Source of the DNA: Psammoneis japonica
Taxonomy: Eukaryota
DNA length: 64,000 nucleotides
Assembly: GCA_008632985.1 (NCBI GenBank)
Contig: QPGO01000196.1
Location: 62,001 to 126,000 of the forward strand
Direction: 5' to 3'
This document shows positions 10,501 to 43,310 of the stretch, in pieces. The notes under the pieces were generated by a model. It did no database searches and was not told the DNA's origin. It saw only the letters and a program-made list of their open reading frames with translations. Within the stretch, counting starts at the first letter, position 1; each line of letters starts with the position of its first letter. A program made the translations under genes and the position numbers.

Positions 10501-10737
10501 AAATATAACAGAAAATGAAGATGACTGGGTGGAAGAAAACAACAACTCCTCACTGCTGTCTAAACAGCAGATGAGTCTCCATGCAGAGACCGTTACAGGA
10601 GCCGAAAGACTGGTGTCGTGACATCGGTGCTACTGTTATTATTCTTGTGAGCCGAGTGGCTCGAAAGCAAACTACATTGTGCGACGCACGCGGAACTAAG
10701 AGCACACATAATTATGTGTGATAAACTAAAATCTTGT

Positions 10738-15162: not shown

Positions 15163-18100
15163 GCTTGGATGATGTCAACATCACTGTCGATGTCAAAGGA
15201 TGCATCGTCATCAGGGTCATCAGGGACCAGGTCATGTTCATAGATGGCACGGCGCGGAGCGCGAGGAGCCGTCTTGGGGGTGAACATGCTGTCGTACTGT
15301 GCTGCAGCAGAAAGCAAGAGTCCACAGCACTCTTCATAAGAAAAGACCCTTTCCATTCTGCATGCGGAACTGATCTGCCTGATTCTTCACCGAACGGAGT
15401 TCTTCGATAGGATGAACGGCGTTCTCAAGCATGACACGTTTCTGGCCAGCAGAGAAATGGTCCATACCCGGGATAAGAGCTTCATACTTGCGAAAGCTGG
15501 TCCTGCCAGTAAAGCATGAAGGCATGGGTTGATCCTTTCCAGGTGCCATCACCGAGTCGAGCAGTGGTGCAATATGCGTTGTTATGTACGTTATATATAT
15601 GTATATCTATATATTAAATAAATTTATATTCCAATCGTACGTCAATCGTGGGTTCCTACAAAGGACAGATCGATCACACAGAACCACCACAACAACTACC
15701 AACCCCATGGACACCCTAATAATATATAAACAAGTTGATCGGATGTCGAAAATTGCAAATACGATCGATTGACGATGTTGACATCTTACGTGTCAATGGC
15801 AATCGTATCCGGACAATCTGTTGTCACGAACATATTCTCCGAAAGGCCTTTTGTCTGTAGAAGCAGTACAGAAGCTTTAGGCCATTGAGAACTCGTTCGG
15901 AGAAACCAAAAATCACAAAGTAAAATTTAATCTCATAATTTTCACTTTTCACACTTGATTCTACTTTCGTTTATACTCGTTCTTCGAGCATGGTGCATTG
16001 TGTATACACACCACAGAAGGTAAAAACGCGGAAAATGAAAATTTTAACTTATGTGCCTTTGTAAATTCTTCCATGAGCAGGCATGAAATGCATCAGTTCT
16101 GCTGGAATCGATTTCCAAGCGGAAGCAGCTCAATCCGAGCAGCACCTCAAGATGGAACATTGTTTTTTGTCTGCAAGACAAGAGGATTCGTTCTGATACG
16201 ATCCATTCCAAGTACCTCAGGACCAAGGACTCTACAAGTGCACAGCATTATCGAAATATCCACACCAAGTCATGGTTGTGTAGAATTTCAAGTCTTGAGT
16301 CGATCAGGTCCAAGAAATGTATCTACTGTGCAAGGAGAGACTGTTGGAGAGTTTTTAGAGACCGAATCGACAAGCCTCGAGTCCAAAGAGCAAGAAGGAA
16401 CCGTTGGAAAGTACCTCAAGAGTCTCTTATCTCATGTCTTTCCAGGAATTGCACTTCAGAATCAGAATTATTTTTTTCGAGATGATCTGAAGAAACCAAA
16501 GGCTCTCAGCAGCAAGAGAGTGCCTATTCGACCCAAGAGGTCAATGAAGAGCGTCTGTACGACCCTTCAATCGATTCTAAGTTGAATCTAGCGGGAAACC
16601 GAGCCGTGAGCTGTTGGCTATCACTCGCACCGCAAGGATGGCAGCATCAGTCTACTGTCCAAAACAATCAACTATTGCAACTCATCCTTGATGAGCTGTT
16701 TAAGTTTTGAGTCATCTAAAGGTTGTTCATGACGTCCATGACGAAAAAACATATCAACTCAGGCTCTGATGGCGCAGTTGGTTCCAAAATAAAAAAGGTT
16801 CCAAATTTGGTTCCAAAAATGGTCTCCCACATGGTACCTGAATAATCCAAAGTGAATAAAAGGTGCAATCCTTGAAAAAAGAACACCTGCATCACGAATT
16901 GAAGCTATTCTAAAAATGAACTAGCGAAAGAACGCCGTGGACACATTCAGCGTGATCCGAAACGGCGCCGTTCTAATGGCAATCGCACGTGGCGTCGCGA
17001 CAACGAAAATGCCGCTCGCAAAAAAAGAGTTGAACATCATGATTGATCAGGCAGTTCAAAAAAATACTCAAAGCGAGTTCCTTGAACAAGAAAAACAGCA
17101 AAAGAGTGCAAGGGTGGCTCTGAAAGAGACCAAAAAAAAACATGATGCTCTAAATAGCAATCGCACGCGGTCGTGTGACGATGGCAGAAATGCCTCTGTG
17201 AAAGAGGAATTGAACTCCACAGTTACTAGGTAGTTCACAAAAACTATCAAAGCGAGTTCCTTGGCAAAGGAACGAGAAAATAAGAGCGAAAATTACGACT
17301 CTAAAATGCTTAATGAATAAAACTATCAATTTGGAAAAATTGACCCGATCGATTCCGATCAAAAATTTTATACTCTCAAGGAGCATAACTCGACACAGGA
17401 CATCTGGCAATCCAGAAAAAGCATCACAGTATGTTGTGCTAGTCCCATTGTCACGGTTTATGTGACTGCTTCTCTGAGAAAAGCAAAAAATAAGCTTCAA
17501 CGTGTTCTTCTCGATAAAGAACATCGTCGACCCATAATTTTGCGCAAATTCGTGCGAAAGTTGAGAACACAAGAATCCGCCACCAAAAACTTGGGAAACC
17601 AAGGGTGAGCTCTTTACGACTGATAGTAAACACCGAATTCAGTTTCTCACTGTGCAAATTTAAGACATGCTGACATTAAAACAGAACATGTTGACAACAC
17701 AAAATCTTCTTCAAGTTCATATGATGTGATCATGAGACGCGACTTAATGTCCAGTCTTGAAATCACATTGGACCATGCGAATGAAGAAATCAAAGAGGAA
17801 GAAGCAACTACATCTATGGAGATCTTCGAAGCCAATGTTTCCAGCTGAATGCCGATCACATTGAAAAACACGACGCCGTGAATAGAGTTAACAACGGAAC
17901 CAATGGTTCTCGACTCACATTGTCACACTTCTAATCTCAATGATGTGACAGCTGAGGCAACTCGTCTGACTCCAGAGGAGCAGAAGCCATTGACCTTCCC
18001 TTTTAAAAGATTTAAATCTCTTTTCGATGGTTCTCTAGGCGAATGGACCGGAAAACCTCGCAGTGAAATCTGGCTCGAAACCGCATCATGCGAAAGGTTT

Positions 18101-18594
18101 CCTGTTTCTACAAGCCTTGGAGGTGATTCGTAAGGAGATTGAAAGGCTCTGTAAGCTAAAAGTCCTAAAGAAAAATAAACCATTCTAAATGGACAGCTCC
18201 ACCCTTTAAAAAATAGAAAAATGGTCGAAGCTCGGTTTCTGTCCGACTTTCGTGAACTGAATAAGAGGCCAGTACGCGCGCGGTGTCCTCTACCAAATAT
18301 TCAGGATATACTTCAGAAACTAGAAGGTTCACATATATGACCTCACTTGATTTGAATGTGGGACACTGTCACATCAAATTAAAAAAGCACATGTCATGCC
18401 AACACGAAAATCATGCCGTGGGGAGAAAAAAAGTGCTGTGGACTTCCTGTGAGAAGCCACAGAGCCCCAGATATTTTTAAACAACACATGAGTGAACTCA
18501 TAACAGGTTTGAAGTTGTCAGAACGACCGTATATGATCGTTTGTGCCTGACAAAGAGTGACTTCAAAATGTCACCTGTGAAAGTGACAGCTTAA

Positions 18595-19092
18595 CCCTTC
18601 AACCACCAGGGGAGCAAATCTCCACGGGTGGAGATTTGCTCTACTTAAGGATGTGTGACGTGTCATGCAATTTTATAATAATATAATGAACGTGGTATAA
18701 AAATGTCATGTCACGTAGAATCTATGTAAAGTGTACCACGTGCATTTACTTGTTGGGAGCAAATCTCCACCGGTGGAGATTTGCTCCGAGGGTGTGGTAT
18801 TATTGGTCTATTTGCGACAGTAATTCATGATAACCTGCATTGTTAAAGGTTGAGATTTAGTTCCTCTCTATTCATAGATGTAGCTTGCAAAAAACCCGGT
18901 GTTAAAAGTCGACATTGAACTTTCTAAATTACAAAAAGGGTTCCCCGAGATCTTCGGCGAATGCGCATTCCAAAACAAAATCGCGCGAATTCAATATTAT
19001 CCATATCTGAAATTACTTCATTTACTATATTTGTGACGTAAGGGAGCAAATCTCCACCCGTGGAGATTTGCTCAAGTCCGGTGGTTGAAGGG
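18595..19092. mobile_element. Non-autonomous piggyBac-like element
   Basis: TTAA on both sides (18591-18594, 19093-19096) and a 13 bp TIR CCCTTCAACCACC. The empty TTAA site is visible in N1 at ~6938. Three internal GAGCAAATCTCCAC..GTGGAGATTTGCTC palindromes. Confidence 0.9.
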
Positions 19093-20234
19093 TTAATTCG
19101 GCATTCAAACGACTAGAACAGTCGCTTAGAAGGTTAACAACAAAGGTCCTTCACTATTTAACTTGAAATAAACTATCAAGACTTCCATACGTAACGACAT
19201 GTAATCGATTGCAATAAAATGGAGGCGATTCAAGCAATCGCAACACGAGAAAAACGTAAAGAACACTACGACATCTCGTCGTTATATGTTACTACTATCG
19301 AGACATGTAGTCTCAACGATCTCCTGTACAATGCTAGCCAAATTCACCTCAATAAAGGTCAAACGGCAAAAGCACAACTACGGAACGAAAAGTCTCCAAA
19401 AATGTGGAGCGTGTCAAATCAAAAACTATATTGTTATCATACACGTATTTCAATGTTATACGTTACAACGGAAAAAAGAACTTCTGTCCATAGTGAAAAC
19501 ACTTATAAAATTCCGAAATATGCTGTTTGGCCAACAGATTAATATACACACGGATCATAAGACGCAACGGACAAAGTCATACGTTGACGACTTAAAATAA
19601 AGAATTACTGTCCCAAAATAATATACATCGAGGGCAAGGCGAACATCATCTCGATAGACGCAATCAGCCGACTTACTATAAAGAAAATTGAATCCTACGA
19701 CAATGTCCTACCGTTAAAACAGGATAAAGACATTCCCTCCAAATTGGCGGACGCGACATATCATACGAACACTTTTTGTGGAGGCGAGCGAGATCGAAAA
19801 ATGCTCATGTCATAAGGATAAATCGCCTTATTAAAGGACGGTTAGAAAAAAACTCTGTGACAGATTGGTGTGTCATACGACATTACAGTGTCCACTTCAC
19901 ACTGGCAAAAGACAATCTCACAACACCCGTATCGTTGTACTGTACAATGTACGAGGCAAGACATAAATAACTTATCATGTCGACACACGAGATGTGCCAA
20001 AGATTCAGAAGAAGAAAAGAAATGTGGACGTTTATCCACATAGTGCACGAAAGCAGTGCCTTCGGAATGACATAATAACACCGGCATGTCAAAAAGGAAA
20101 CGTCCAAATGACGGTTAACATCCAACTGATAGATGGTTGAAGTACAAAAATCCATAATGGAATTCATAACCATCACAGGATTAATTATCAAGACGAAATG
20201 GTCGTGTCCTTGACCATCGTTAATTACTACTTAA

Positions 20235-20628
20235 GGGTGGTCGGTTGCCACTTTTTTTAGCTCGAATTCGGCCGAATAGCTCGTATTTTGCATGATTTTT
20301 CCTGAATTTCACCGTGCTTCACCGTGGTGAAAACAACAAGCCATAAGTCTGTGACAGAGGTGGTCCGTCTACCAACTCTCATTTATTTTATGTTTGTCAT
20401 GTATCAAAGATTGTATGTACATGAAAAGTTGGTAGACGGCAAACTACGTTTTTGAGAAATGTCGATGATTGTCATCATCGTCGTGCTTCGGTCGCGGTGG
20501 TGATGGTTCTCGTTTTCGTGCACGATCGGGTGTGACTATGAATAATTCTTGTATTCAAAAATAAACACCATAAAAAACCTTATTCAAATGCAATGGTAAT
20601 TTTAGGATAAACGCGGGGATGACCCCCC
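20235..20628. mobile_element. Small TTAA-flanked DNA element with GGG...CCC termini (Kolobok- or Harbinger-like)
   Basis: TTAA|GGGTGGTC...GACCCCCC|TTAA. The segment is absent from the homologous N1 site at ~8060. Confidence 0.75.
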
Positions 20629-21988
20629 TTAAGAAACGTGGTAGTGCAGCAGAGCAATGTGGCATGTGAAGTAAGCCCGCCAAACTACACGAAATCCACA
20701 AGCAAGTAAGTGAACGCCATAAACAAGAGAGCACATCGAGTGCTGGGCAATGTGCCATGTACAATCGACACCATGAAAAAACAACAGGACAATTGGTCCT
20801 TGTTTTCACATGAACAACAGAACGTCAGAGAGAATGCTCGACGCAATGCTGTGTGTGCACATGTATAGAGCGTGAGACAAACAAGGCACTCTCGAAAGAC
20901 ATGCTGGAACATCATCAGCAGCATGCAGCAATTGCAGTACATCCTACGCATCATACTGCTACGCAAACTACACCTGGACAATTAGTCTTCAGAGACATGA
21001 CATTTAACGTCCAACATGTCGCAGACTGGAAATTAATCCAGCAGCGAAAACAAGAAATCATAAATAAAAATAACGTTCGAGAGAATGCTCGACATGCTCC
21101 TTATACGTACAGAGCAGGAGAGAAGGTGCTACTCGAAAAAGACTCGCAGAAGTTAGAACAGCCCTATGTTGGACCGTATGTAATAACAACGGCACACACT
21201 AATGGCACAGTACAGATCAAACGCAGTGACGTCATTGACACTGTCAATGTCCATCGGATAACACCGTTTAACAACTGACTCTAATGTGCAATTAGGGAGG
21301 CGAATGCAACATGCGTTGTTATGTACGTATTACATGTGTATATCTATATATTTTAAATAAAAGTACACTTCAATCGTACGTCAATCGTGGGTTCGTACGA
21401 AGTACAGATCGGTCACGCAGATAAATTTATGTTCCAATCGTACGTCAATCGTGGGTTCGTACAAAGGACAGATCGATCACACAGAGTTGATCAGATGTCG
21501 AAAATTGCAAATACGATCGATTGACGATGTTGACATCTTACGTGTCAACAGCAATCGTATCCGGACAATCTGTTGTCACGAATATATTCTCCGAAAGGCC
21601 TTTTGTCTGTAGAAGCAGTGCAGAAGCTTTAGGCCATTGAGAACTCGTTCGGAGAAACCAAAAATCACAGAGTAAAATTTAATCTCATAATTATCACTTT
21701 TCACACTTGATTCTACTTTCGTTTATACTCATTCTTCGAGCACAGTGCAGTGGTGAGGTATGCGTGAGAAGGGTGGAGGACTCCAGGGATGAGTGGAAGT
21801 AAGGGCGTACTTGGACAGGTCACGATACACCGCTTGAGAATCAGAGGAGCCGACGTATTGACGAACAAGTGCCTTGCCTTTGTCATTCTGCAAGATCCGT
21901 TCGAACACTGCGAACATGTACTTCTGTTGTTCATCAAACAGGGCCTTGTCCTCAGCTGTAGAGGGCTTGTACGTCGGATCGAGAATGC

Positions 21989-22378
21989 GACGCGTTCCAG
22001 GTCTAGGTGGGACCTCGCACTGCTGAACTGTGACATCGACAGTTTTTTGAATCTCGTCGTATGTCGCGCACGTAGATTTCTACGTGATTTTTTCGATATT
22101 TTGTGTCATTTTACGGTACACTTATTGAGCGATCCGTCCAACAACTTTTGACATTTTTTGTTACAGCGCGATTCTATAATGTCTTAAGAATCGCGTAGGG
22201 CAGGCGAATTTGCAAAAACGTCGAGTGGTAAGAGGCCTAATTGTACCACAAACTTGGCCGTTTATTTGATGTTGAAGATAAATATATCCATTAATTAAAT
22301 TCTCGTACTACGGAGCTCGCACGTAGAATTCTACGGGCCCAATGTCACACGGAGTCCCACCTAGGGCTGGAACGCGTC
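21989..22378. mobile_element. MITE family M, copy 1
   Basis: TIR GACGCGTTCCAG..CTAGGTGGGA and 4 bp TSD ATGC. It interrupts copia gag. Confidence 0.92.
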
Positions 22379-25300
22379 ATGCGTGCAACGTCTTGGGAGC
22401 GGGCCTGTGCGATGATGGAGGTGTGCCACGTGTGCCACTGTTTGTCGGACTTGAGAAGCGCGAAGGTAAGTGGGTCGCGTTTGATGCCTCGTTTAAAGTC
22501 ACGTACGGGATCACGTGGTTTGGGTGGCAACGAGCCAGGAGTGGGAGCAGATGGTGCTGTACCCATGGAGAGGGACGCCACATACTCTCAGGGCTAAGAC
22601 GATAGTTGGTGAACTCCTCTTGTGTGAACAATTGAGGGTCATTGCTAACATCCGCACCACTGCGCGCTTTTACCGTGTACAGGCTAATTAGCACAGCTAT
22701 CTGTGCTTTGTAACCACATAGCAAGGGCATTTGATTGGTGGGCATTTGATTGGTGCCGTCGTTGTACACAAGGGCATCCAATTGCGTTGGAGTAAAAGTG
22801 AAAAGGTCCTGATACGAATCAGTTCCATCAATGTTTAGGGCTGAGCGCAATGGACTGTCTGTGGCTTGATTCAGAACAGTGCCTAGAATGTGCTCGAGGC
22901 CATTGATTTGTTGTTGCCTGGTGAGAACCATGTTGCAGCTAGGTGGATGTCGGAACTAGCTAGAGTCCGAGTGTGGGCTTGAAATGACTTGAAACTTGAC
23001 TTGAATCTTGACTTGATGTCTTGCACTATCTCAAGAGTCAGAAACCGCCGGGCTATGCTATCCCATTCGTAGTTAAGTGCTAAGCTTCCTATCCGGTCCG
23101 TAGAGTTGTGCCGGCACATCCGAACCCGCAGCTGGTGATGCTTTGGGTTGCTTGAGAGCGGAGCAATGGGTTAAAAGCCCCTGCTGACAAGCTAACCAGA
23201 GGTGGACAAGACCTCTGAACCGTTCTTATTTTATGTCGGTTGGATAACCCAATCAGGCCGGCCAAATTTGGCACTGTGGAGGGATGAACAAACGTGGGAA
23301 ATGCACCCTCGCCCCAACGCAGGCTGTGATCACGAATTGCTTCCTCTCACAGTTGTCCTCGTGGACCCTGGAGGACTGTAGAAGACCAGCAATCCAGTGC
23401 AGATACGAGGCGGTAGACTTGGCGTGCGTAGAGCAGAGCCAGAGTCAGGGATTTATGTTGTGTGCGCGTGAACGCGTGCCGATGTATTGGCAGGATCCGC
23501 TGCAAGGAATCTGGAATCTCGGATGTCTGAGAATTCAGGAATTCCTGGCCAAACAAATATCCGTTGAACAAACACATCCAATGATGGGAGGCATCGGACA
23601 AATCCAAACGTGTAGATTTAATCCAGCATTCAGCAGTGAAGAAGGTAGACACACACTTCCACCGCCAACGGTGCGCATCGTCGAAAATTTCTCGATGACG
23701 ATGATGAACGCTCAATGGACAATAAAGAGCAAGACTGTTAATCTAACAGAAAATGAAGATGACTGGGTGGAAGAAAACAATAACTCCTTACTGCTGTCTA
23801 AATGGCAGATGAGTCTCCGTGCAGAGACCGTTACAGGAGCCGAAAGACTGGTGTCGTGATATCGGTGCTACTGTTGTTATTCTTGTGAGCCGAGTGGCTC
23901 GAAAGCAAACTACATCGCGCGACGCCCGCGGAACTAGGAGCACACATAATTATGTGTGATAAACTAAAATCTTGTTCAAATCCTGTCAAAATAATTGTTG
24001 GCAGTTGCTGGTGCCTCTAATGCCGTCGTCGCTTGATGCCACCCTTGGCTTTGCTCTCTTCTACCGATGCCACGTGGGCAGGTAGGGCCTAGACCTGTTC
24101 GTTCTTGAATGTAAACAAACTATTCTAGAGCTATGACAGCAGTGCTTGCACTCCTTCGATTAGTTTAGTGGTGTTGTTTAGGGTGTGCATTCAGAGACGA
24201 AACTTGCACCCCTTCCTGTCTACCTGCTACTCAAACCAAACATACATCTATTGGTGGAGAAGGCGCAAGTAGCCAATTCGTTCTTAAAGCGAGCAGACGG
24301 CAGTGTAGATAAGCCTCTGGTAGCACAACAATGAGCCATCATCATTGGCGATTCAAAAGTATGATGTCAATTGATTGACAGAAAGCTGCAATCCTTAAAA
24401 TCGTCTTGTCCTAAATTGCACCCATTAAAAGTGCTCCCACAATGCCCTTGCTGATGCTCGGTGGCAAAGAATGACTTGGGTTTGCAAGATCATGACAAAC
24501 GTCAGTGTTTTTTGCCAAAGACTTGGATCCGACAAAGTGATTGAGATTCTCGTGTCCAAACGGAGCTTCGGGAGTTTGCAATCCTTGAAACGTCTTGCAG
24601 GCTGGTACAGAACCGGGATGCACGGGCTTTATTTTCGTCCTTGAGTTGCTTCAAGTAATTTATAAAGTCGGGAAAGGGGTTGGGCTTGACTGCCATGTTG
24701 GCATTCCGTTTCGTACAAATTCACCCCGTCAGCAACAATGTTGTTCTCTTCCGTCAAACTCGAAACCCCGTTGACACTGCCTCACGGCTTCTTCAATTGT
24801 CTACCCCCATTTTCGACTCTCTCATCATTGATGTTGAATTTTGTATTGCAGTGCTCTGCCCACAGGTCTACTGGCATCCATTGATTCTGAACGCGAGAAT
24901 CCAAGAACAGTCGATGCATGTGTTTTGATGCAAACGATTTTCGGACATCAGACATGATGGGTTTTTGCACTTCGGCCCTCAGGGAGCTTCACAGGTGGGT
25001 TGGTAAGGTGGGTATAGGTCATAGTGCTAAAAGCCATGGATTTTCAAGAAGCTGTGAGCATCATCGTCGAGGGACCGGGCACGTGATAATTCTTGTGCTT
25101 TTTGTTTTCATTACAGCAGTGGTTGCAACGTCACCTAGTGGCGCGGGGGGAGGGACAGACGCGGGGCAATGCGGAACTGAGTCATGTAGGTAGGAAAAGG
25201 GATGGATTTCGAGTTGGGGTTTGATGTTTGCGATTGTAGTTTGGTGGAGTAGCGGGTTAGTTGGTCAGCGAGCGACTTGGCAATCACGAGGCTCAGGCTC

Positions 25301-25924
25301 TGTAGACCCCATTGTGATGGTGTTGAGGAGTGGTGGGTTGGGCCAAAGCATTCAGCAGAGATGGTTTGCCAAGTGGCGGTGGCGGCAGGGAGGATGGCAG
25401 ACGGGGATTGTTGGCCTAGTAATTCGATGCGGTGTGGCACCGACACGTAAGATGTCAACATCGTCAATCGATCGTATTTGCAATTTTCGACATCCGATCA
25501 ACTCTGTGTGATCATTCTGTCCTTTGTACGTATCCACGACTGTGGTACGATTGACATGTAAATTATATATAATTATGAATATGCACACAACAGTTGCACA
25601 CTGCATTCGCCTCCCTAATTGCACATTAGAGTTATTCGTTAAGTGGAATAATTTGACGGACATTGACATTGTCAATGATGTCTCCACGTTAACTGAATGA
25701 GATAGGCACATGTACTTTATGACCGAGTGTGCCCTCTCTGATGTGTGTATATTAACTAACGTATTAGATATTCAGGAAGCCGTTAGAAGTCAGTTCCGAT
25801 CAGCGATTGCGCTGATCGGGTCTCTTCTCGGTTCTCCCACAACTTTTTATCAAGTCATCTCAAGCTAGATCTTGCACTGTAATTACAGTCGTTGTTATAG
25901 CTTGTTCATTGCATTATCAACTTT

Positions 25925-26128
25925 ATGACAACGCGAGGAGTGTTATCGAGAAGAGAGAAAATTTATTTACGAGCTCGTGCAGAAAATTTCATTCGAAGTC
26001 AATCAGAATCGCAGCGTGGTTGCACTCGTGAAATTGGCGATTCGGAGCAGCGTTTGTTCGAACTCGAATCTCGTATTGCCACTCTTGAATTTGTCATTGT
26101 TTGGTTGTTGATTGTTCTCGTTGTGTGA
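25925..26128 (+). CDS. Small upstream ORF (ORF0) of element C: basic + coiled-coil, hydrophobic C-terminus
   Basis: 67 aa, similar to ORF 37763..37978 at the same position in element D (LSRREKIYLRARA vs LTKREKRELRARA). Confidence 0.65.
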   Translation: MTTRGVLSRREKIYLRARAENFIRSQSESQRGCTREIGDSEQRLFELESRIATLEFVIVWLLIVLVV

Positions 26129-26201
26129 TTCAATTGGGAACGTTTTATTTCGTTTATCTTGTGGATTGTTGATTATTTGATCGCTGAAATTGTTCATCGC
26201 C

Positions 26202-27389
26202 ATGCATCAAGAAGCCTTGGAGAAAGCGTGTATTGAACATAAAACCAAATTCGTGGATTCTGAGCTACAGGAAGTGAAGCTCACTCAAACCTTCGATGAT
26301 GGCACTAAAATTTCAAAAATGTGTCCTATTTTCACAGGAGAGCATGGAATTGAATCATTGTTGCACGTGGAGGATAGGTTCCGGAAGGTGGCAAGACAGC
26401 TGGATTATGACACCGGAACGGAATTATTTGATGCTTTCGAGGATTGTCTCCAGGGAACAGCGGAGGCAAAATGGCAGAACATTACCGCGGGTATCCCACA
26501 GAATCAACGGATGGTAGCTCGATTTGATCAGGCTATCTCAGCCTGTTATCTACACTGTGTGAAACCAACAGCTCGCGACACGATGAAGATGCATTTGCCC
26601 ACTTGCAAAAAGCCTTACTCAGCGGAATCTGAAACTCATGTTGATCGTATGGAGACGTTGTTTTGTCACACTAACCGTTTGCCTGGTACCGTTCCTGCAC
26701 TTACAGAGCAGGAGCAGAAAAATATCATCTTTTATACCTTCCCTTTGACCTGGCAGCAGTCCTACATTCGTGCGGGCAAGAACCTTGTTACGGATTCTAT
26801 GGTGGATATCCAAGCCTACATGAGTAATGAGAAAGTGTTTGCCGATGGTCAAGATAACAAGAAACGCAAGTCCAGTAATGGCAATGGAGGGAACTCCAGT
26901 AACAAAAAGGGTAACCGTGACAAGAAGGATGGCAAGGGCCAACCGAAGGCAGGTGACCCGTGTCCGGTCCCGTGGCACCATGGAAGGCATGCGTGGGGCC
27001 AATGTTGTGATAATCCAAACAACCCTAAATTTCGTGGGCCTCAGAACCGTGGCGGTTGAGGAGGAGGCCGTGGCGGTGGACGCTTTGGTGGTCGTGGTAA
27101 CCAGAACCAAGGAGGTCATGGCACCTGTTATAACAACAACAATGGAAATCAAAATAACAATGGCAACCAAGGTGGTGGTCAACATTATTATAATGAAAAC
27201 AACAACCGTGGAGGCCAAGGACAGGCCGACGGATGTGCTGCTCAAGCAGACAATATGAATGATAACAACCAGGCTCGAGAAGCTCCTCGTGGTGATGTGC
27301 ACCATTTCGATATGATCGGACGAGGCCCTCCACGATGCGGAGGTGTGGTGAGGTTTCAGCCGGACGGGCAGTTTCCTCGGCAGTTCTGA
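26202..27389 (+). pseudogene. gag: Gag of element C, with a premature TGA at 27057
   Basis: Homologous to D gag (EVKLTQ, HGIE.LL.VEDRFRK, RMETL). It has a CPVPWHHGRHAWGQC knuckle. The RGG/Asn-rich tail continues in frame past the stop. Confidence 0.85.
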
Positions 27390-29799
27390 GAAGAAGGAGC
27401 TGAATGCTCCGGAGCTGAATGCTCCCAATTGCCTATGAGAGAAGTGTTTGTTGAAGAAAATGATTGTGTTTTACCTGAATGAAATGATGAATGTTTTGCT
27501 TTTGATTGTTTTGAAAACCCTGACGAATTGTTACCTGTTGAATTTGAAAATACTGCAGAAAATTACATGAATGAAGAGGGGGATGTGTTTGATCAAGATG
27601 CATTTGAACACAACATTCCTCTCCCCAAAATGAGTTCGCAAGTCTCGCGTACCGCATTGGTTCCATCTACACTACTTGTTGCAAAATCAATACAACGGCA
27701 TGAGTCGAATCGTGTGATGCGTGTTTTGTTCGATTCGGGTGGTTCTCACACTATGATTTCGTCTCAAGTTTTACCTCGAGGAGCCGCACCATCCATTGAC
27801 GAACATGGAGTCCGAGCTTTTCAAACCATGGCAGGTCCTTTCCAATCGGGTCGTTGGGTGGCCTTGAGTGACATCGTGTTACCGGAATTCGACAAAACTA
27901 GGAGGATTGACGGCTGTGTGGCTCACGCATTTGATGCTCCGTGTGCGTATGACATCATTTTGGGTTGAGATTTCTTGGACAAGATTGGTCTCAACCTGAA
28001 CTATGACACGAGGACACTACATTGGCTAGACCGTGTGATCCCAATGAAGGAACCTCGTCATTGGTCCAAATCCTGCAATTGGCATGTGGCTTTAGATCGA
28101 ATGGATGAATTTGATGAAGATTGTGAAGACGAGTTGGACTATGGATACGATGATGGATGTGATAACTACATGCTCGACGCCAAGTATGAAGCAACGGATC
28201 CAGCGGAAGTGGTTCGGAACTTAGATCATCTCATGGAAGAGCAAAAGAAGAAGCTGTTAGCGGTGTTGGAAAAACATTCGACCTTGTTTGACGGAACTTT
28301 GGGGCACTATCCTCATGAAAAGGTACACCTCGAAGTGGATGAAAATGCTGTTCCATGTCACTCAAAACCATTTCCTGTTGCTCGAGTCAATGAAGAAGCG
28401 TTCAAAAAGGAACTAAAGCATTTGGTGAATCTCGGCGTACTTCGACCATGTGGACCTATGGAATGGGCAGCCGGCACCTTCATTGCTCCAAAGAAGGACG
28501 GCCGAGTACGATGGGCACCCGATTTTCGGGAGCTCAACAAGGTCCTTAAGCGAAAAGCACATCCTCTACCAGTTATTCAAGATGTGCTACAAAGGAGAGC
28601 GGGATACAAGTTCTTCACGAAATTGGATCTCACTGTGTTCTACTGCAATTTGGAGCTGGACGATGAAAGCAAGGAGCTCGCTACGATTGCAACTCCGTAC
28701 GGGAAGTTCCAGCATTGTCGTATGGCTGTGGGATTAAAACCAGCTCCGGATGTTGCTCAGTCCATCATTGAAAAGATTTTGCATGGTTTGGATGTTGAAA
28801 CTTACATTGATGACATTGGCGCATTTGACACTGACTTTGATTGCCATCTCTCTCGTCTTGACAAGGTGCTACATCGTCTCGAGGAGAATGGTTTGAAAGT
28901 TAACCCGTTGAAATGCGAGTGGTGTGTCCAAGAAACCGATTTTCTAGGGCATTGGCTTACTCCAACTGGCATTAAACCGTGGAAAAAGAAGGTCGAGGCG
29001 ATCCTACGAATGCAACCTCCACGGGATGCTACTCAGCTCCGGTCGTTTCTCGGTGCAGTGACCTGTTGTCGTAATGTGTGGCCTCGCCGTTCTCACCTGC
29101 TTGCACCTCTGACTGAATTGACAGGCAAGAGTCAGTTCCAATGGACAGAATCATGTCAGAAAGCGTTCAAGGAGATGAAGGCGGTAATCGCGGCGGAAGC
29201 GTTGATGGCCTGCCCTAACCATAACCTGCCATTCCATGTCTACACTGATGCATCAGACTACCAGATGGGCGCCGCTATCATTCAAGATGGTAAACCTGTA
29301 TGGATCCGCCTTCGGAGGGGAAGAGCCTTGGGCCAAGTGGCAAACGCAAAGGAAAAATTGTTCATTTTGAAAAGTTGGATTCCAAGGAACTGTGCACTAT
29401 GCTCGAAGAACGAGTGTAAACGAAAGTAGAACGAAGTTCAAAAAGTGAAAATTATGAGAATTATTTCTACGCAATCATTTTGGGTTTCTCCGAACGGGTT
29501 CTCAATAGCCTAAACCTTTTGTACTGCTCCTGCAGACAAAAGGCCTTTCGGAGAATATGATCGTGACAACAGATTGTCCGGATACGATTGACATTGACAC
29601 ATAAGATGTCAACATCATCGTACGATCGCATTTGCGATTCTCGACATCCGATCACTTCTGCGTGACCGATCTGTACTTCGTACGAACCCACGATTGACGT
29701 ACGATTGAAGTGTACTTTTATTTAAAATATATAGATATACACATGTAATACGTACATAACAACGCATGTTGCATTCGCCTCCCTAATTGCACATTAGAG

Positions 29800-32700
29800 T
29801 CAGTCGTTAAACGGCATTATCCGACGAATATTGACAGTGTCAATAACGTCACCGCGTTTGATCTGCACTGTGCCATTAGTATGTACCGTTGTTATTTCGT
29901 ACGGTCCAACATAGGGCTGTTCTAATTTTTGCGAGTCTTTCTCGAGTAGTATCTTTTCTCCTACTCTGTACGTGTAAGGAGTACGTCGAGCATTCTCTCG
30001 AGCGTTATTTTTATTTATGATTTCTTATTTTCGCTGCTGGATTAATTTCCAGTCTGCGACATGTTGGACGTTAAATGTCATGTCTCTATTGAAGACTAGT
30101 TGTCCTGGTGTAGCTTGCATAGTGGTATGATACGTAGAACGTACCGCAAATGCTACCGCTGATAGTATTCCAGCGAAAGGATCCTCAGCATCTAGAGGTG
30201 TATGTTGCAAATCAAATGTATGGAGCATGTTCCCCAGCACTTGATGTACGCGTTCAATAATTGCGTTTGCTTGTGGATTTCGTGTAGTTATAGGCTTGAC
30301 TTTAATGCCATAATCATCTTGCACCATTTCTCTAAATTGGTGTCCGATGAACTCACTTCCACAGTCATATGTAATTAACGATGGCCAAGGATATCTACTT
30401 AACCATGTTCGTTCTAGCAGTCCAGCTACAGTTATGGACTCCTTATTTGGGATTTCCACGACTTCAAACCATCCGGTTGCTGGATCGATCATTGTTAAAC
30501 ATTTCAGGACTAGGGGTTCTTTCTTTCCCTTACAACGTATTTTGTATGGCCCAATAAGGTCCACACATAGTCGTTCCCATGGTACGGATTCTGCGCACTT
30601 AGGAGGTAAATGTCCACATTTCTTGTGTTTCTTTTTGAATTTTTGGCACGTCTCACATCTCAACACGTATTTTCGTATGTCTTCACGTAAGGTGGACCAC
30701 CACAGGTGTTGTGAGATTGTTTCTTCTGTTCGATTTATGCCAGGGTGAAGAAGGTACGTATGACACCAATCTATCACTGCCTTTTGTAACGTCCTCGGGA
30801 TGACAATTTTATCCTTATGACATATGAGCAACCGGTCTCGCTCGCCTCCACGAAAAGTCTTCGTATGAAACGTCTTATTTGACAATTGGGAGAGAATGTC
30901 TTTGTCCCGTTTTTGTTCATAATCAAGAACTTTGTAATTTAACGGAAAGACATTGTCGTAGGATTTTGGCAGGACCTTTTCAGCTAGCTCTTCTGTGCTG
31001 AGGGTTTCCATAGGTTCTATTTTCTTCACAGTAAGTCGGCTAATCGCATCTGCGACAATATTTGCCTTGCCCTCAAGGTGTGTTATTTTGGGACTGTATT
31101 CTTCTATTATTAGACGCCAACGCATGACTCTGTCCGTTGTGAAATTTTTATGTGTGAGATTTTTGTGATCCGTGTATATATTTATCTGTTGGCCAAACAG
31201 CACATTACGGAACTCTTTTAACGTCTCCACTATGGACAATAGTTCTTTTTCCGTTGTAGTATAACGCGTCTGCGCTCCATTCAGCTTGCGGCTGTAGAAG
31301 GCAATTGGTCGGTTTTTCTGAGTAATAACCGCCCCCAATTGAGAATTACTAGCATCAGTATATATCTCAAAGGGCACATTAAAATTCGGGTATGATAACA
31401 GCATATCTTTGGAGATGATGCGCTTCATATTTTCGAAGGCTTTTTGTTCTGTTTCGGTCCATTGCCACTTTACTTGGGTAGAAGTGAGTTTGGCTAAAGG
31501 AGCTAAAACATGAGATCGTCGAGGCCACATGTCTCGATAGTAGTTGATCATGCCGATAAAGCGTCGCAATTCCTTGCGAGTTTTAGGAGTTGCGATCGCG
31601 TGAATCGCTTCTACTTTTTTTGGAATCGGACTGATGCCCTTACGGGTGACATGAAAGCCTAGATAGTCTACTTCGGGTTTAGCGAAAAAGGACTTCTCGG
31701 CGTTGACCTTCAATCCGGCTTGTTCTAGGCATAAGAACACCGTTTCAAGCTTCTTGAGGTGGTCTTGAAAATCACCTTTTGTAAGACACAATATATCATC
31801 AATGTAAGTTCTGACGAACTCCAGACCTGCCATGAGCTCACTCATGTGCTCTTGGAAAATATCTGGAGCTCCACAGATTCCCATCGGGAGTCTACAGTGC
31901 TCATATTTGCCCCAAGGCATGACGATCGTGCACAAGCGACGTGCATGCGGCGTCAATTCGACATGATAGTATCCCATGTTTAAATCTAGGGACGTTGCAT
32001 ACATGAAGCCTTCGAGCTTCTGTAACATATCCTGAATATTGGGCAGAGGAAACGGAGTACGAATTAACCTCTTATTTAGCTCACGAAAGTCAGATAAGAA
32101 CCGAACTCTACCATTTTTCTTGGGTTGAATAAAGGTTGGAGCCGCCCATTCAGAACAGTTTATTTTTCTTAAGACTTTCAACTTGCATAGTCTTTCAACC
32201 TCCTTACGAGCAGTCGCCTCCAAGGCTTGTGGTGCGGGAAATGGTTTGGCATGATACGGACTCACGCCCGATTTCAACTTCAAATCCACCGGTTTCCCGG
32301 TCCATTTGCCTAGAGAACCATTGAAAAGGTTTTCAAATCTTTTTAAGAGGAAGTTCAGCTGCTTCTGCTCTTCAGGAGTTAGATGAGTAGCTGCTGCAGT
32401 CACATTATTGAGGTTTGCAGAGTGACAGTCTGAGTCAAGGATCCGATTGACCCTGTCATTAAGACCAATCACTGCATGAGATTCCTCAATATGATCGGCA
32501 ATCAACTTAAAAACATCGGCATCGAAGAGTGCATCAACATTCTTCATAGGAGTAGTTGCATCTTCCCATTTAATCTCTTCATTCGAGAAGTCCAACATTG
32601 TCCCAAGACTTGACATTAAGTCGCGTCCCATGATCATGTCATAACGACTCAAAGAAGAAGGGGAGTTGTCAACATGTGCCGTTGTTTCAATCATCTTATG

Positions 32701-33000
32701 TTTGTCAAATTCGGGTAAGGAGAATTGGATCTTACATCGACTGTCAGTCGTAAAGAGCCCTCCTTTGGTTTCCCAGAGTTTGGTGGCGGATACTTTGGTT
32801 CTGAGTTTCCGCGTGAATTTGCGCAAAATTATGGTTGACGATGTTCCGCTATCGAGGAGAACGCGTAGAGGCTTATTTTTCGCTTTACCTAATGAAGCAT
32901 TCATATAGGCGACGACTGCTGGACTAGCATGAATTACTTTGGCCCTTTTTCTGGGCTTCCTAATATCCAGTAGAGCGTAAGACTCCTCTTGCGGTGCAAG
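29800..33000 (-). CDS. pol: Pol of element B (PR-RT-RH-IN), with one premature TAA at 30025
   Basis: LLDSGTS, LDLNMGYY, YIDDIL, YTDAS, HPG..CETCQ, VDLIGP and NPQANAIIER are present. The frame continues after the TAA to a TGA at 29800. Confidence 0.93.
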
Positions 33001-34155
33001 TCATTCCTCAGAATCACTGCGCGTCATTTTTTCAAACTGACAATTCTCCTCGTCAAGGGTGTCAGAATCATAATCTTTGCTCTTGTGCTTTTTATCATTG
33101 TTCGAGGAACTCGCTTTGAGCATTTTTTGAACTGCTTGGATCGCCATAGCATTCAACTCTTCTTTGCGAGCGGCGTTGTCGTTATCGCGACGAGACCACG
33201 TGCGCTTGCCATTTGAACGGCGCCGTTTTGGGTCGGGTTCATAGTTCCCACGGCGTTCTTTCGCAAGTCTTTTGATCGACCAGCACTTGTCCGTGTTGTG
33301 AGTGGATTTCTCGCATGAAATGCACCACTTCTCGGACTGAGATTTTTCGGTGCCATGTTGGTGACCATTTTTGGAACCACGTTGGGAACCACTCTTGGCT
33401 TTTGATGCAGCACCGCCACTGCCATCAGCCTTGGCATGAATGCCATCGAATATGTCTTCTGCGACCTCTAGGCGTTCCAAGAACTCAACCAACTCGTCAC
33501 AGGTATGTTTCAAAATTTCGAAACCCTGGACGGTCGACTGACGCTGCCACTTTCGAGGTGCAAGATTGAAGAGGATGTCCTTGAGCTCGTCGTCCTCGAT
33601 CTTCTGTTCCTTCCCAAAGGGAGGATAGAACTTGAGGTCTTCGTTGACTTCCTGGACCCAAGCAGCAATTTCGCGCACTTTCATGGACTCCGGCTTCTTG
33701 AGATCACGACGCAAATAACGTTTCTGCACCGAAAGTGCGTTCTTGGGAAACACATGCCTCGTGAGATGTTGTAGGCATTTCTCGAAGCTTCCTTCCGCAG
33801 ATTCGTCTTCAAGGTTCGCTGCCGCATTCTCGAAAGCACGTAGAGCGTCTCCTTGGAGTAACACACGCATGAGACGAAACTTATCAGATTGCTTCCTGAC
33901 ATTCTGGCCCACTAGAAGTTGATCGTAGCTCTTGAGAAATTCGATGAACTTGGGGACACCTTGTTTCTTGTAGCACTCGACATTGATGGTGTAGGTACGG
34001 CTATCCTTCTTCTCGGGATGAAAACGTTGCTCCATCTTGAGGCACTGGCTCGGTTTGAGGCTCTTCGGCTCGGAGTTCGATTCCAGCGGTTGAGGAACGA
34101 TTTTCTCCTGCCTTAACGAAGTTTTAGCGTTGGTTACATGAGGTGAAAGCTTCAT
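33001..34155 (-). CDS. gag: Gag of element B
   Basis: Open ORF from ATG at 34155 with LLQGDAL..F, QKRYLRR and a CxxC-H-C knuckle (CISCEKSTHNTDKC). Confidence 0.88.
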   Translation of the reverse strand: MKLSPHVTNAKTSLRQEKIVPQPLESNSEPKSLKPSQCLKMEQRFHPEKKDSRTYTINVECYKKQGVPKFIEFLKSYDQLLVGQNVRKQSDKFRLMRVLLQGDALRAFENAAANLEDESAEGSFEKCLQHLTRHVFPKNALSVQKRYLRRDLKKPESMKVREIAAWVQEVNEDLKFYPPFGKEQKIEDDELKDILFNLAPRKWQRQSTVQGFEILKHTCDELVEFLERLEVAEDIFDGIHAKADGSGGAASKAKSGSQRGSKNGHQHGTEKSQSEKWCISCEKSTHNTDKCWSIKRLAKERRGNYEPDPKRRRSNGKRTWSRRDNDNAARKEELNAMAIQAVQKMLKASSSNNDKKHKSKDYDSDTLDEENCQFEKMTRSDSEE

Positions 34156-35335
34156 CTTGAACTTATTACCTTCTGTGGTGTGTATACACAATGCACTATG
34201 CTCGAAGAACGAGTGTAAACGAAAGTAGAACGAAGTTCAAAAAGTGAAAATTATGAGAATTATTTCTACGCAATCATTTTGGGTTTCTCCGAACGGGTTC
34301 TCAATAGCCTAAACCTTTTGTACTGCTCCTGCAGACAAAAGGCCTTTCGGAGAATATGATCGTGACAACAGATTGTCCGGATACGATTGATATTGACACA
34401 TAAGATGTCAACATCATCGTACGATCGCATTTGCGATTCTCGACATCCGATCACTTCTGCGTGACGGATCTGTACTTCGTACGAACCCACGATTGACGTA
34501 CGATTGAAATATACTTTTATTTAATGTGTAGATATACACACATAATACATGCATAACAACGCACATTGCAACTGAGCAAAGCCGAGGAAGAGGAAGATTT
34601 GGAGTTGGGCGCTTGCAGGTTCAAGTGTTGCCGTGCTCCGGTTGATCCTTCTGATGAGTCTCACGCCGCCTTTTCCTCTCTGCTTGATGAGCCTGAATTG
34701 TTTGAATGCTTTTTGAATTACCCGACGCTGGACGAAATGCCGAATCCTACTGAGATGCTAAGGATACAACAGTTCCAGTTCGAAGACCTCCAACTGAATC
34801 AGCAAAGACAACAAAATCAGCAGCAGTTCGTGGTCAAGATTGTGAATCATCGCCCCCTGATTTGTTGTCGTTTGCATCTGAATGATCCGCCTGGAGCCTG
34901 GAAAATTTGCATTCCTGCTGCGTTGTTGCCGGACACCATTGCATGGTGCCATCACGCATTGGGCCATTGTGGAGTCGTGCGATTGTATGAAAGTATTCGG
35001 ACTCATGTGCATCATCCTGCATTGCATCGACGTTGTAACGAATTTGTTTGCGATGCGTGTCAACGATTTAAACAACTGGGTCCTGGATGTGGAGAGTTAC
35101 CTCAACGTCAAGCACCTTTGGCTCCGTGGACGGAAGTAGCGGTTGATCTCATTGGACCGTGGAAAACACCGATTCAAGACCAAGAGATTGAATTCAGCAC
35201 TCTCACTTGCATTGATGCTGTCACTGGATTGACTGAACTCGTGCGCATTGACAACAAAACTTCTCAGCATGTGACTAACAAGTTTCGCAACCTTTGGTTA
35301 GCTCGTTATCCCAGACCGAATCGATGCATCCATGA

Positions 35336-35727
35336 GACGAGTTCCAGGTCTAGGTGGGACCTCGTATACTGCTGAACTGTGACATCGATAGTTTTTTGAA
35401 TCACGTCGTATGTCGCGCACATAGATTTCTACGTGATCTTTTCGATATTTTGTGTCATTTTACGGTACACTTATTGAGCGATCCGTCCAACAACTTTTGA
35501 CATTTTTTGTTACAGCGCGATTCTATAATGTCTTAAGAATCGCGTAGGGCAGGTGCATTTGCAAAAACGTCGAGTGGCAAGAGGCATAATTGTACCACAA
35601 ACTTGGCTGTTTATTTGATGTTGAAGATAAATATATCCATTAATTAAATTCTCGTACTACGGAGCTCGCACGTAGAATTCTACGGGCCCAATGTCACACG
35701 GAGTCCCACCTAGGACTGGAACCCATC
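35336..35727. mobile_element. MITE family M, copy 2
   Basis: Near-identical to 21989-22378. TSD ATGA. It splits the integrase of element C. Confidence 0.92.
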
Positions 35728-36156
35728 ATGACAATGGTGGAGAATTCATTGGTTGGGAGTTCCAAATGCTACTAAATCAAGCGGGCATTGCTGATGCGCC
35801 GACGATGTCTCGAAATCCTACAGCCAACTCCATTTGTGAACGAATGCACCAGATGGTAGCTGACATCTTACGTACTGTGGTTGTCACTAACCCACCTTTA
35901 AATGTTCAACAGGCCAAGCAGATTGTGGACGATGCCCTTGCTACAGCCTCTTATGCTTTACGATGCTCCCACTCAAGGTCTGTGGGTGTTTCAAGTGGAG
36001 CTCTAGTGTTTCAACATGATATGATTTTGGACTTACCAGTTATCTCTGACCTTGCTACGATGCAAGCCAACCGACAAGCATTGATCGATGAGAATCTACG
36101 ACGACAGAATGCAAAGCGCCATTCCCACGATCATCTAGTTGGTCAAGATGTATTAA

Positions 36157-36602
36157 CACCCGCATCCACGGATTCACCAGGCAACACTCGGGTATGGCAA
36201 AAAGTGTGCATTTGGTCAAAATCGATTATTGAGTGCAAATGGTGGCATCTTTGGGGTCCCTTTAGTGAGCCGAACACGCACATTTCTCATCTGACCATCA
36301 CAGGTCGTCTTACGGGGTGTCAAAATGTCGTGCTTTAATGTGTGAATTTTCAATTTTATATAACCTTGGTGGCTGGATACATTATATAACAATTAATTTT
36401 CAAGACGCGTCAAAGCACGACGTTTTGACACCCCCCATAAGACGGACCCATGATGGTCAAATGAGAAATGTGCGTGTTCGGCTCACTAAAGGGACCCTAA
36501 AGACACCACCATTTGCACTCAATGATCAATTTTGACCAAATGCACACTTTTTGCCATACCCGACTTTTGCCAATTTTGCCTGGTGAATCCTTGGATGCGG
36601 TG
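36157..36602. mobile_element. TTAA-flanked foldback element with long TIRs (piggyBac-like target site)
   Basis: TTAA|CACCCGCATCCACGGATTCACCAGGCAA...TTGCCTGGTGAATCCTTGGATGCGGTG|TTAA. The inverted arms are ~180 bp. Confidence 0.88.
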
Positions 36603-37762
36603 TTAATCAAGTCGGTGGATCCTTCAAAGTTGGAAGAACGAGCCTGTGGTCCGTTTCGAATTGTACAAGTCCATGTCAACGGGACTGTTTCGGTGCTGCG
36701 AGCACCGCACGTTATTGAGCGAATTAACATTCGCCGCATGGTGCCGTATCGGAGTTGAGGGTTTTTTCCCAACGTCTGGGTTCCCTTCTCCGTGCGCATT
36801 GGGTTTGAATTTTAATCAAGTGGTTCCAATGGTGCGCGTGTTCCTTGCACCATGGAGGGGAAGAGTGAATGAGATAGGCACATGTACTTTATGACCGAGT
36901 GTGCCCTCTCTGATGTGTGCACATTAACTGACGTATTAGACATTTAGGAAGCCGTTAGAAGTCAGTTCCGATCAGCGATTGCACTGATCGGGTCTCTTCT
37001 CGGTTCTCCCACAACTTTTTATCAAGTCATCTCAAGCTAGATCTTGCATTAACTGTATTGTGCTATTAGCAATGACTGTTGTTGTTTTATAGGCCAGCAT
37101 AGGGCCGTTTCAATTTCCAAATGTCTTTCGAGAGTGTCATGGTTTGTCTCACGCTCTATGTGCATATATAACGCTCTATGTGTATGCATATATATAAATA
37201 TACTGTAGTATTGCGTCGAGCATTCTCTCTGACATTATTTTGTTCATGTGGACACAAGGACCAATTGTCCTGCTGTTCTTTCATGGTGTCGATTGTACAT
37301 AGCATTCTGCCCAGGAAGTCGCCGCAAAAGCGTGGAAAGTCTGTCGCGGATACTTTCCACTTTATTAATTATATCTATATACAAAAAAATATAACACAAT
37401 ATTAATTTGTTATGAATAACTTATATATTCCTTTTTATATTGCCCTTACAACCTAAGTAATTTTGGTTCGAAACCGTTGAGTGATAATGTTTATATAAAG
37501 TGATAAAGTGTTCATTAAGAAAGGGTCATTATGACCGTTTTTGATCAATGACTTTCCACGATAGAATTACTGCAATGTCTCGCACCTTATTTTTCTGATA
37601 CACAGTATTAATGAACCTATTAGATATAACGGAAGCCGTTGTAACGGGCTTCGCTGAAAGCGACCCTCGTTACCTCGGTCTTTCGCTCACAAATTTTGTT
37701 ATCACTGAAGTCTTTATCTCGTTAGACCTTGCACTGTAATTACAGTCGATTCAAAGAACTGG

Positions 37763-37978
37763 ATGGAGACTAGGAACAATACAAACAAATTGACTAAACG
37801 TGAGAAAAGAGAACTACGCGCAAGAGCAGCAGTTTGGGCTATTGAGCACCAGAAACAAGTACAACAACGTAAACGACACGAACAGAATTTGGCGAGCCGA
37901 GTGCATCATTTGGAGTCAAAGGTAGAGTCCCTGGAGAGGACTATTGAACAATTGTATTCCCTTTTTCATGATGAGTGA
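37763..37978 (+). CDS. Small upstream ORF (ORF0) of element D: basic + coiled-coil
   Basis: 71 aa ATG-initiated ORF similar to C ORF0. Its end overlaps the gag start (ATGATGAGTGA). Confidence 0.65.
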   Translation: METRNNTNKLTKREKRELRARAAVWAIEHQKQVQQRKRHEQNLASRVHHLESKVESLERTIEQLYSLFHDE

Positions 37979-42683: not shown

Positions 42684-43310
42684 GGTTAAGGGTTTTCTCC
42701 CCAACATTTGGGTTTCCCTTCTATCCTCATCCATTGAAATTTAAATTTTTTGAGTCCCGCATGATTCTCGACACTCGAATCATGGAAGGGAAGAGTGCAG
42801 TGTCTCGCACCTTATTTTTCTGATATATAGTATTAATGAACCTATTAGATATAACGGAAGCCGTTGTAATGGGCTTCGCTGAAAGCGACCCTCGTTACCT
42901 CGGTCTTTCGCTCACAAATTTTGTTATCACTGAAGTCTTTATCTCGTTAGACCTTGCAATTACATCGTGGAATACATTCCACGATGCTGTCGTGGAAAGT
43001 GAAGACTTTCCACGATACAATCGTGGAAAGTCATATGACTTTCCACGATGACTTTCCACCTTTCGAGGCTTATGTAAATGCCCGTAAAATAGGGTCATAT
43101 GACAAAATTTTGATCTCATCGCAACGCCTTGATGCCTACCTACCATACAAATCTTGCCATTTTCCAACGATTTTGGAACAACTCCCTCTCCAAAATCCAA
43201 GCCGTTACCTGCCTGCAAGGCCCAGTTCTTTCCCGCTTTACCGTTCGCCATGTACATGTACACCACTCCACTAGGCGATGTAGTGCATGAACTTCTCACA
43301 AGCGCATACT

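Follow-up and report, generated by a model that had tools for sequence, protein, structure and literature searches.

The stretch of DNA analyzed in this study, hereafter the window, comprises 64,000 nucleotides of Psammoneis japonica contig QPGO01000196.1 (GenBank assembly GCA_008632985.1; positions 62,001 to 126,000 of the forward strand), and coordinates are counted from its first letter. The window harbors two related long terminal repeat (LTR) retrotransposons of the Ty3/gypsy superfamily, C and D, in which a short perfect palindrome lies directly past the 5' LTR. Element D (37571-42958, plus strand) is intact and contains a 163-bp 5' LTR (37571-37733), a gag open reading frame (ORF) of 406 aa (37968-39188), a pol ORF (39297-42683), the polypurine tract GGAAGGGAAGAG (42784-42795) and an adjoining 163-bp 3' LTR (42796-42958), which matches the 5' LTR at 97.5%; its target site duplication (TSD) is ATTAC. 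The pol product encodes protease, reverse transcriptase, RNase H and integrase in the Ty3/gypsy order, with Pfam matches to Asp_protease_2 (residues 51-137), RVT_1 (301-456), RT_RNaseH (545-640), Integrase_H2C2 (796-850) and rve (881-961), of which the protease and rve matches fall under the curated cut-offs; RT_RNaseH_2 was also matched. The gag product had no Pfam match, and its protein-atlas neighbors included retrotransposon gag and Ty3 capsid clusters, which are only generically gag-like. Element C (25694-37048, plus strand) is the same kind of element, interrupted by a nested gypsy element, X, and by an insert of about 400 bp. Its 183-bp LTRs (25694-25876 and 36866-37048) match at 96.7%, its TSD is TTAAC, and the polypurine tract GGAGGGGAAGAG (36854-36865) adjoins the 3' LTR. 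Both elements thus have direct LTRs with TG...CA ends, 5-bp TSDs and polypurine tracts, to which D adds the pol order, and these features place them in the Ty3/gypsy superfamily. Between the palindrome and gag, an ORF of about 70 aa is also present (37763-37978 in D, where it overlaps the gag start, and approximately 25925-26125 in C), in which a basic stretch (REK..LRARA) is followed by a coiled-coil-like heptad region; no Pfam match was found for it.

The boundaries of C and D were fixed independently of the palindrome by the LTR pairs, the TG...CA ends, the TSDs and the polypurine tracts. A search of the window located the self-complementary 12-mer CTGTAATTACAG at 25877-25888 in C and at 37734-37745 in D, both on the plus strand, with its first base being the first base past the LTR-terminal CA (position +1). 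Inclusion of the flanking A and T extends it to the 14-mer ACTGTAATTACAGT (25876-25889 in C and 37733-37746 in D). No third site was found in the window with one mismatch at most; dinucleotide shuffles gave 0.10 expected matches, and two or more matches occurred in 1 of 100 shuffles. Moreover, no TGG was found at +1 to +5 after the 5' LTR in C, D or the four further gypsy copies of the window (A, B, X and E) that are described below. The earlier note on this DNA, made from its letters, had reported an identical self-complementary 12-mer just past the 5' LTRs of C and D, strongly diverged LTRs and leaders around it, and no primer-binding site starting with TGG, and all three observations were confirmed. 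When the LTR and leader of C were aligned with those of D, 117 of 250 columns agreed, whereas a 21-nt block consisting of CTTGCA, the palindrome and TCG was identical throughout. Since the two elements are homologous (pol 58% identical at the protein level), the common 12-mer was inherited; its agreement exceeds chance because it was kept against a diverged LTR and leader background and because palindromes also occur in the surveyed relatives. Besides the palindrome block, the LTRs of C and D have just one well-conserved stretch in common; this stretch, TATTAGATAT..GGAAGCCGTT (25750-25784 in C; 37606-37640 and 42831-42865 in D), is probably a TATA-like promoter and start region, and a stable hairpin lies 3' of it in the LTRs of both elements.

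Another gypsy family in the window, represented by the four copies A, B, X and E, carries a different perfect 12-nt palindrome, TGTGTATACACA, one base past the 5' LTR. The palindrome is located at 4501-4512 on the plus strand in copy A (5' LTR 4133-4499), at 15999-16010 on the plus strand in copy B (LTR ending at 15997), at 34179-34190 on the minus strand in copy X, which is nested in C (5' LTR 34192-34570), and at 53000-53011 on the minus strand in copy E (5' LTR 53013-53378). X and D have pol sequences that are 36.6% identical. In every one of the six elements of the window for which both LTRs are present (C, D, A, B, X and E), a palindrome begins at +1 or +2 past the LTR end.

A survey of metagenome-derived sequences extended this observation to a wider clade. 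Among 8000 candidates scored in metagenome-derived protein sets, 711 relatives of the D pol were found at E <= 0.001, and metagenome contigs scanned with an alignment built from 20 pol sequences yielded 412 confirmed stretches, of which the best 80 were kept, corresponding to 78 loci with pol 41-58% identical. No relative was found in viral contigs. The junction of 5' LTR and leader is reached in 54 of the 78 loci, and each of these 54 has a perfect palindrome there, 10-14 nt in length. Of the other loci, 17 stop short of the junction (seven of them assigned by coordinates alone), five contain no more than a 3' LTR with flank after it (L004, L024, L065, L071 and L072), three of which independently confirm the LTR end of a palindrome-bearing sister locus, and two are ambiguous, with a 10-mer five bases past the candidate end in L032 and only an 8-mer in L063. 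No locus among the 78 clearly shows a junction without a palindrome. In four loci, a 3' LTR followed by unrelated flank makes the LTR end known independently, and in all four the palindrome begins at +1 or +2 past that end: CTGTAATTACAG in L008, TGTAATTACA in L019 and L027, and TTTTGATCAAAA in L057. For reference, the density of palindromes across the loci, junction palindromes included, is 1.24 per kb for a length of 10 nt or more and 0.47 per kb for 12 nt or more.

The 54 loci and the six window elements together gave 60 elements with 41 distinct 20-mers centered on the dyad. Base pairs were counted on center-aligned windows, since MAFFT aligned the 20-mers by the LTR CA instead of the palindrome center. 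The central 12-mer took 22 distinct forms, 14 of which were perfect palindromes and 8 of which had a perfect inner 10-mer; counted by element, 50 of 60 had a perfect 12-mer and 10 of 60 a perfect 10-mer. Pairs 1-5 were Watson-Crick in 41 of 41 distinct 20-mers, with all four pair types found at each, and this is not an artefact of selection because every junction-bearing locus qualified. Pair 6 was Watson-Crick in 31 of 41 (plus two G-T), pair 7 in 8 and pair 8 in none, so the helix has sharp ends. No G-U was present in the inner five pairs in any of the 60 elements, whereas the flanking stems described below do contain G-U. These data revealed that what is conserved is self-complementarity and not sequence, because 22 central 12-mers and all four pair types at the five inner pairs were recovered.

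In a quick maximum-likelihood IQ-TREE tree of the reverse transcriptase region (80 rows), palindrome types track clades and double changes recur (TT|AA to TA|TA); the double change that distinguishes CTGTTTAAACAG from CTGTTATAACAG was seen at several places on the tree. Locus L001, sister of C and D, carries CTATTCGAATAG, in which three pairs differ and each is altered on both sides. When the sequences were anchored on the LTR CA, the palindrome started at +1 or +2, and its first two bases were C or T followed by T in approximately 90%. A one-base gap after the LTR is typical of LTR elements whose integrase trims the end of the complementary DNA (cDNA). The earlier note had named compensatory changes in related families as a check on its idea and related active families lacking a palindrome as evidence against it; the changes were found, with all 60 junction-bearing elements palindromic across 22 central 12-mers, and no family without a palindrome appeared in the survey.

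Perfect Watson-Crick symmetry without G-U resembles a palindrome that acts as DNA, and the site may therefore be imagined as the target of a DNA-binding protein that acts as a dimer and is encoded by the host or by the element, or as a cruciform on integrated or linear DNA. The small basic coiled-coil leader ORF of C and D would offer a candidate protein. However, the 22 sequence variants are unlike a protein recognition site, the G-U pairs of the flanking stem point to RNA, and the fixed +1 or +2 offset from the LTR end would be left without a reason. Furthermore, the leader ORF is absent from the metagenome relatives examined, in which gag starts 20-100 nt past the palindrome. A function at the DNA level is accordingly considered highly improbable. 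Another candidate, that the palindrome is a miniature pair of LTR ends or mimics a circle junction, was rejected, as its halves resemble LTR termini only in TG/CA and several variants are without TG...CA.

Pairing partners of the palindrome were evaluated on both sides. Against the 300 nt upstream, in which the transcript start is unmapped, the 16-nt site had a mean z-score of -0.17 (n=58; 3 of 58 below -2), and the longest exact upstream complement was 4-7 nt (n=58). Against the 120 nt downstream, the mean z-score was +0.51 (n=60; 1 of 60 below -2), and the longest exact complement was 4-5 nt in 54 of 60 elements and 7 nt at most. The lack of a complement in the LTR argues against priming of the Tf1 type, in which the primer site complements the first approximately 11 nt of the element's own transcript, whereas the only partner of the present site is another copy of itself. 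Likewise, the lack of a downstream complement argues against the hairpin of the fungal GalEa elements discussed below. The predicted homoduplexes of the 22 variants ranged from -10.4 to -20.2 kcal/mol, and the predicted hairpin had 0.0 kcal/mol in 15 variants and -1.0 to -2.0 kcal/mol in the other 7. The earlier note had suggested priming through an intermolecular duplex of palindromes or through a cleaved hairpin, and had counted complementarity to the transcript 5' end, that is, the ordinary Tf1 mechanism, as evidence against it. That complementarity was not seen in the LTR, and the suggestion itself found partial support: of its two forms, the intermolecular duplex fits the predictions better, and no hairpin is predicted in 15 of the 22 variants.

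The same energies bear on snap-back priming within one RNA, in which a cut just 3' of the palindrome would create a 3' end that folds back as a hairpin and primes copying of U5-R. The geometry works, as the first base past the LTR finds its partner in the last base of the palindrome, and the hairpin, of 4 bp in the seven variants that have one, is often drawn at the loop tip in minimum-free-energy folds. However, 15 of 22 variants are without it, the homoduplex reaches -10 kcal/mol or better in every variant, and all 5-6 pairs are kept Watson-Crick, including the central ones that would be unable to pair inside a hairpin loop. Snap-back priming is thus judged improbable.

A further feature, absent from the earlier note, concerns the surroundings of the palindrome. 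The 30-nt flanks on its two sides pair mutually, with a mean z-score of -1.75 and 46% of values below -2 (59 elements); after dereplication at 80% identity, the mean was -1.79, with 19 of 45 values below -2 and 2 of 45 above 0. Control sites displaced by 400, 700 and 1000 nt gave a mean of -0.04 with 4% below -2 (n=151). The arms vary by family. In C, minimum-free-energy folding of the palindrome together with its 30-nt flanks paired CAAGCTA in U5 (25861-25867) with TAGCTTG in the leader (25898-25904); in D, the predicted arms are AGTCTTTATCT (37709-37719) and GGATGGAGACT (37761-37771), with a flank-flank duplex of -16.2 kcal/mol (z-score -1.98); and in L028, they are CTGCATAGA and TCTGTGCAG. 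The U5-leader stem is predicted to close a loop of approximately 25-30 nt that displays the palindrome. A stem on the U5 side adjoining the primer site is likewise a feature of Tf1/sushi elements, although in the present elements it is predicted from sequence. The U5-leader stem setting of the Tf1 primer site is reportedly the subject of a 1998 study by Lin and Levin, and a stem-closed setting is also that of retroviral primer sites. Kissing-loop dimer sites share the stem-closed loop as well (PMC11381356).

Taken together, the sequence comparisons suggest that a large gypsy group may start copying from its own RNA instead of a host tRNA. We put at roughly even the chances that the palindrome is the equivalent of the primer-binding site in a broad Ty3/gypsy clade without priming by tRNA 3' ends, pairing with the site of a second genomic RNA, where a cut makes the primer. 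The reasoning starts from the 3' edge of the LTR, which records the start of the minus strand; the primer would therefore have to anneal at +1 to +3, the place occupied by the palindrome. A primer annealing there would in turn have last 10-12 bases equal to the palindrome, and the only RNA known to have them is the element's own.

The position at the LTR edge also bears on the reading that the palindrome is a signal for dimerization or packaging only, like the dimer initiation site (DIS) of retroviruses or the PAL6 sequence of Ty3, with the minus strand primed otherwise. In both of these systems, a self-complementary sequence of the 5' leader atop a stem-loop is able to join two genomic RNAs, and apical-loop palindromes drive dimerization in human immunodeficiency virus type 1 (HIV-1) and Ty3 (PMC11381356); the present palindrome is likewise in a predicted stem-closed loop. 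However, a pure dimer signal would leave the primer required at +1 to +3 without a site, as no other conserved candidate adjoins the LTR. Furthermore, the known dimer sites are palindromes of 6 nt, separate from an ordinary tRNA primer site (PMC11381356), and they tolerate G-U, whereas the present palindromes measure 10-14 nt, occupy the primer-site position and have no inner G-U in 60 elements. A role in dimerization or packaging alone is therefore regarded as unlikely.

An outside primer, such as an internal part or half of a host tRNA, or a small RNA, could alternatively anneal at the site, as in copia or Ty5, in which case palindromy would be incidental. Priming by internal parts of tRNAs is known in other LTR elements. 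An internal tRNA-Lys site is also mentioned in PMC5445492. However, none of the 41 distinct junction sequences starts with TGG, so pairing with a CCA end is not available, and each of the 22 variants with paired changes would require its own matching palindromic primer. By reasoning only, a gap-free 12-nt palindrome also appears ill-suited to a tRNA arm, which needs a loop. Priming from outside is hence considered quite improbable. The only Rfam matches at gathering scores, to the tRNA model at 47737-47809 (38.2 bits) and 54629-54701 (34.6 bits), were not called by ARAGORN; they sit in a repeated unit (47485-47976, 48212-48703 and 54377-54796) and may be a tRNA-derived repeat or pseudogenes. 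The tRNA-like repeat at 47700-47840, read by eye without a computed comparison, showed no run complementary to the palindrome.

If the palindrome is indeed the primer site, the following course can be envisaged. The exposed palindromes of two co-packaged genomic RNAs would pair into an RNA duplex of 10-14 bp, and the site would at the same time be a dimer contact. One strand would then be severed at the 3' edge of its palindrome, on the model of Tf1, whose primer is freed by an RNase H cut of an RNA duplex (PMC7175516). The resulting 3'-OH would prime copying of U5-R on the partner RNA, and the extra base in the families with a +2 start might be removed by integrase, which trims such ends in other LTR elements. 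The absence of G-U in the inner pairs is consistent with a site that has to re-pair as DNA in plus-strand transfer. We propose more tentatively, as a possibility with somewhat less than even chances, that reverse transcription depends on genome dimerization, the primer site being the dimer site, and that cleavage of the RNase H type at the palindrome's 3' edge converts the RNA's own 5' leader into a primer on the other RNA.

Several points weigh against priming by a second genomic RNA. What the sequences show is the position, the covariation, the lack of other partners and a predicted flank stem, and the dimer, the cut and the primer are steps that we infer. No metagenome contig ends in poly(A) or begins with poly(T) to mark a transcript end. 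A duplex with dyad symmetry invites cuts in both strands, which would strip both templates of the site, and a long RNA primer consisting of R, U5 and palindrome offers no obvious stop for plus-strand strong-stop DNA unless a second cut is made. In addition, the duplexes are AU-rich and only 10-14 bp long. In two diverged groups, RNAalifold recovered the flank stem only weakly: one group gave a U5-leader stem with four doubly changed pairs, whereas in the other, where indels put the flanks out of register, there was no outer U5-leader stem but just a short helix spanning the palindrome and the bases next to it. The stem was therefore rested on the shuffle and displaced-site controls. Finally, neither the window nor any of the 20 loci (of 78) scanned with ARAGORN yielded a tRNA gene that could be compared with the site.

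The closest precedent for the present site is the palindromic site of the fungal GalEa Copia elements, and the known kind into which it would fall is that of tRNA-independent self-priming LTR elements with a palindrome past the LTR. The GalEa Conserved Hairpin Site is a 10-nt palindrome that includes the last A of the LTR (CTGATCAGT or CTAATTAGT) together with a downstream partner, and its authors stated that no model fits it (PMC5445492). Both groups of elements lack a tRNA-type site and a Tf1-type complement, carry a short palindrome directly past the 5' LTR that includes the final A (ACTGTAATTACAGT in C and D) and vary it by paired substitutions. However, the GalEa elements are Copia elements of Pezizomycotina, whereas the present ones are Ty3/gypsy (RVT_1, with integrase after RNase H). 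The GalEa site needs the 9-mer CHSeq2 at 12-41 bp downstream to form a hairpin with an A/A mismatch, and no such complement is found here. Moreover, the present palindrome is 10-14 nt long as compared with 10 and is far more varied, and the extension by the final A and a T, present in C and D, occurs in only 8 of 41 distinct sequences across the wider clade. The present site is thus set apart from that of GalEa by superfamily, missing downstream partner, length and breadth of covariation.

Among other self-priming elements, Tf1 and Tf2 (Tf1/sushi) resemble C and D in that they belong to the Ty3/gypsy superfamily, use no tRNA primer and rely on their own RNA, which would be the primer here as well (PMC7175516). 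With tRNA-primed Ty3/gypsy elements, C and D share LTRs with TG...CA ends, 5-bp TSDs, a polypurine tract, gag and the pol order, and differ in having no TGG site complementary to the CCA end of a tRNA. In the literature covered, which did not extend to subscription journals, no palindromic primer site was found reported for gypsy elements; what was retrieved was limited to the GalEa Copia paper and a paper on bivalve terminal-repeat retrotransposons in miniature that cites it. PMC7175516 cites a study of Cryptococcus by Goodwin and Poulter for new priming mechanisms.

If priming in trans holds, it could be a distinct third mode for LTR retroelements, after the tRNA and the fold-back of Tf1, and one without any host RNA. 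A large and widespread gypsy group would then be freed of the host tRNA primer in a way unlike that of Tf1, genome dimerization would be tied directly to the start of reverse transcription, and a testable mechanism would become available for the unexplained palindromic site of the GalEa Copia elements. Such priming would also be invisible to defenses aimed at tRNA primer sites; small RNAs from tRNA 3' ends, which are reported to repress LTR elements through the primer site, would have no target. Annotation pipelines that require a tRNA-complementary site would score such elements as being without a primer site.

The window contains other repeats in addition to the gypsy elements. A Ty1/copia element on the minus strand (10502-23988) has an ORF of 1478 aa with RVT_2, 249-bp LTRs that are 95% identical and the TSD TATTT, and it is likewise without a TGG primer site. 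At its junction (23735-23749, minus strand), the last 6 LTR bases and the next 9 form an interrupted palindrome that straddles the LTR end, CTGTTA-GAT-TAACAG. Two copies of this junction could pair with a central A-A mismatch between G-U pairs, which recalls the A/A mismatch of GalEa in what is a single element. The insert in the integrase region of C (35332-35730) belongs to a repeat of about 400 bp that is also present at 21985-22381, with the copies 96% identical; each holds the 14-nt palindrome CGTAGAATTCTACG approximately 60 nt from its right end, and the 14-mer occurs again at 43650-43663. Possible identities of the repeat are a solo LTR, a miniature LTR element and a miniature inverted-repeat transposable element.

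Furthermore, a large duplicated segment (43122-46998 and 54797-58298), whose copies lie 11.3 kb apart and match over 3.3 kb (96.5% identity) and over another piece of 189 bp, may represent very long LTRs or a segmental duplication. The window also has two long perfect palindromes, of 32 nt (18756-18787) and 30 nt (43020-43049), the latter just 3' of D, amid repeated CTTTCCACGAT motifs that occur in both orientations on both sides of that element. Overall, the window holds 34 palindromes of at least 12 nt, as compared with 16 +/- 4 in shuffles.

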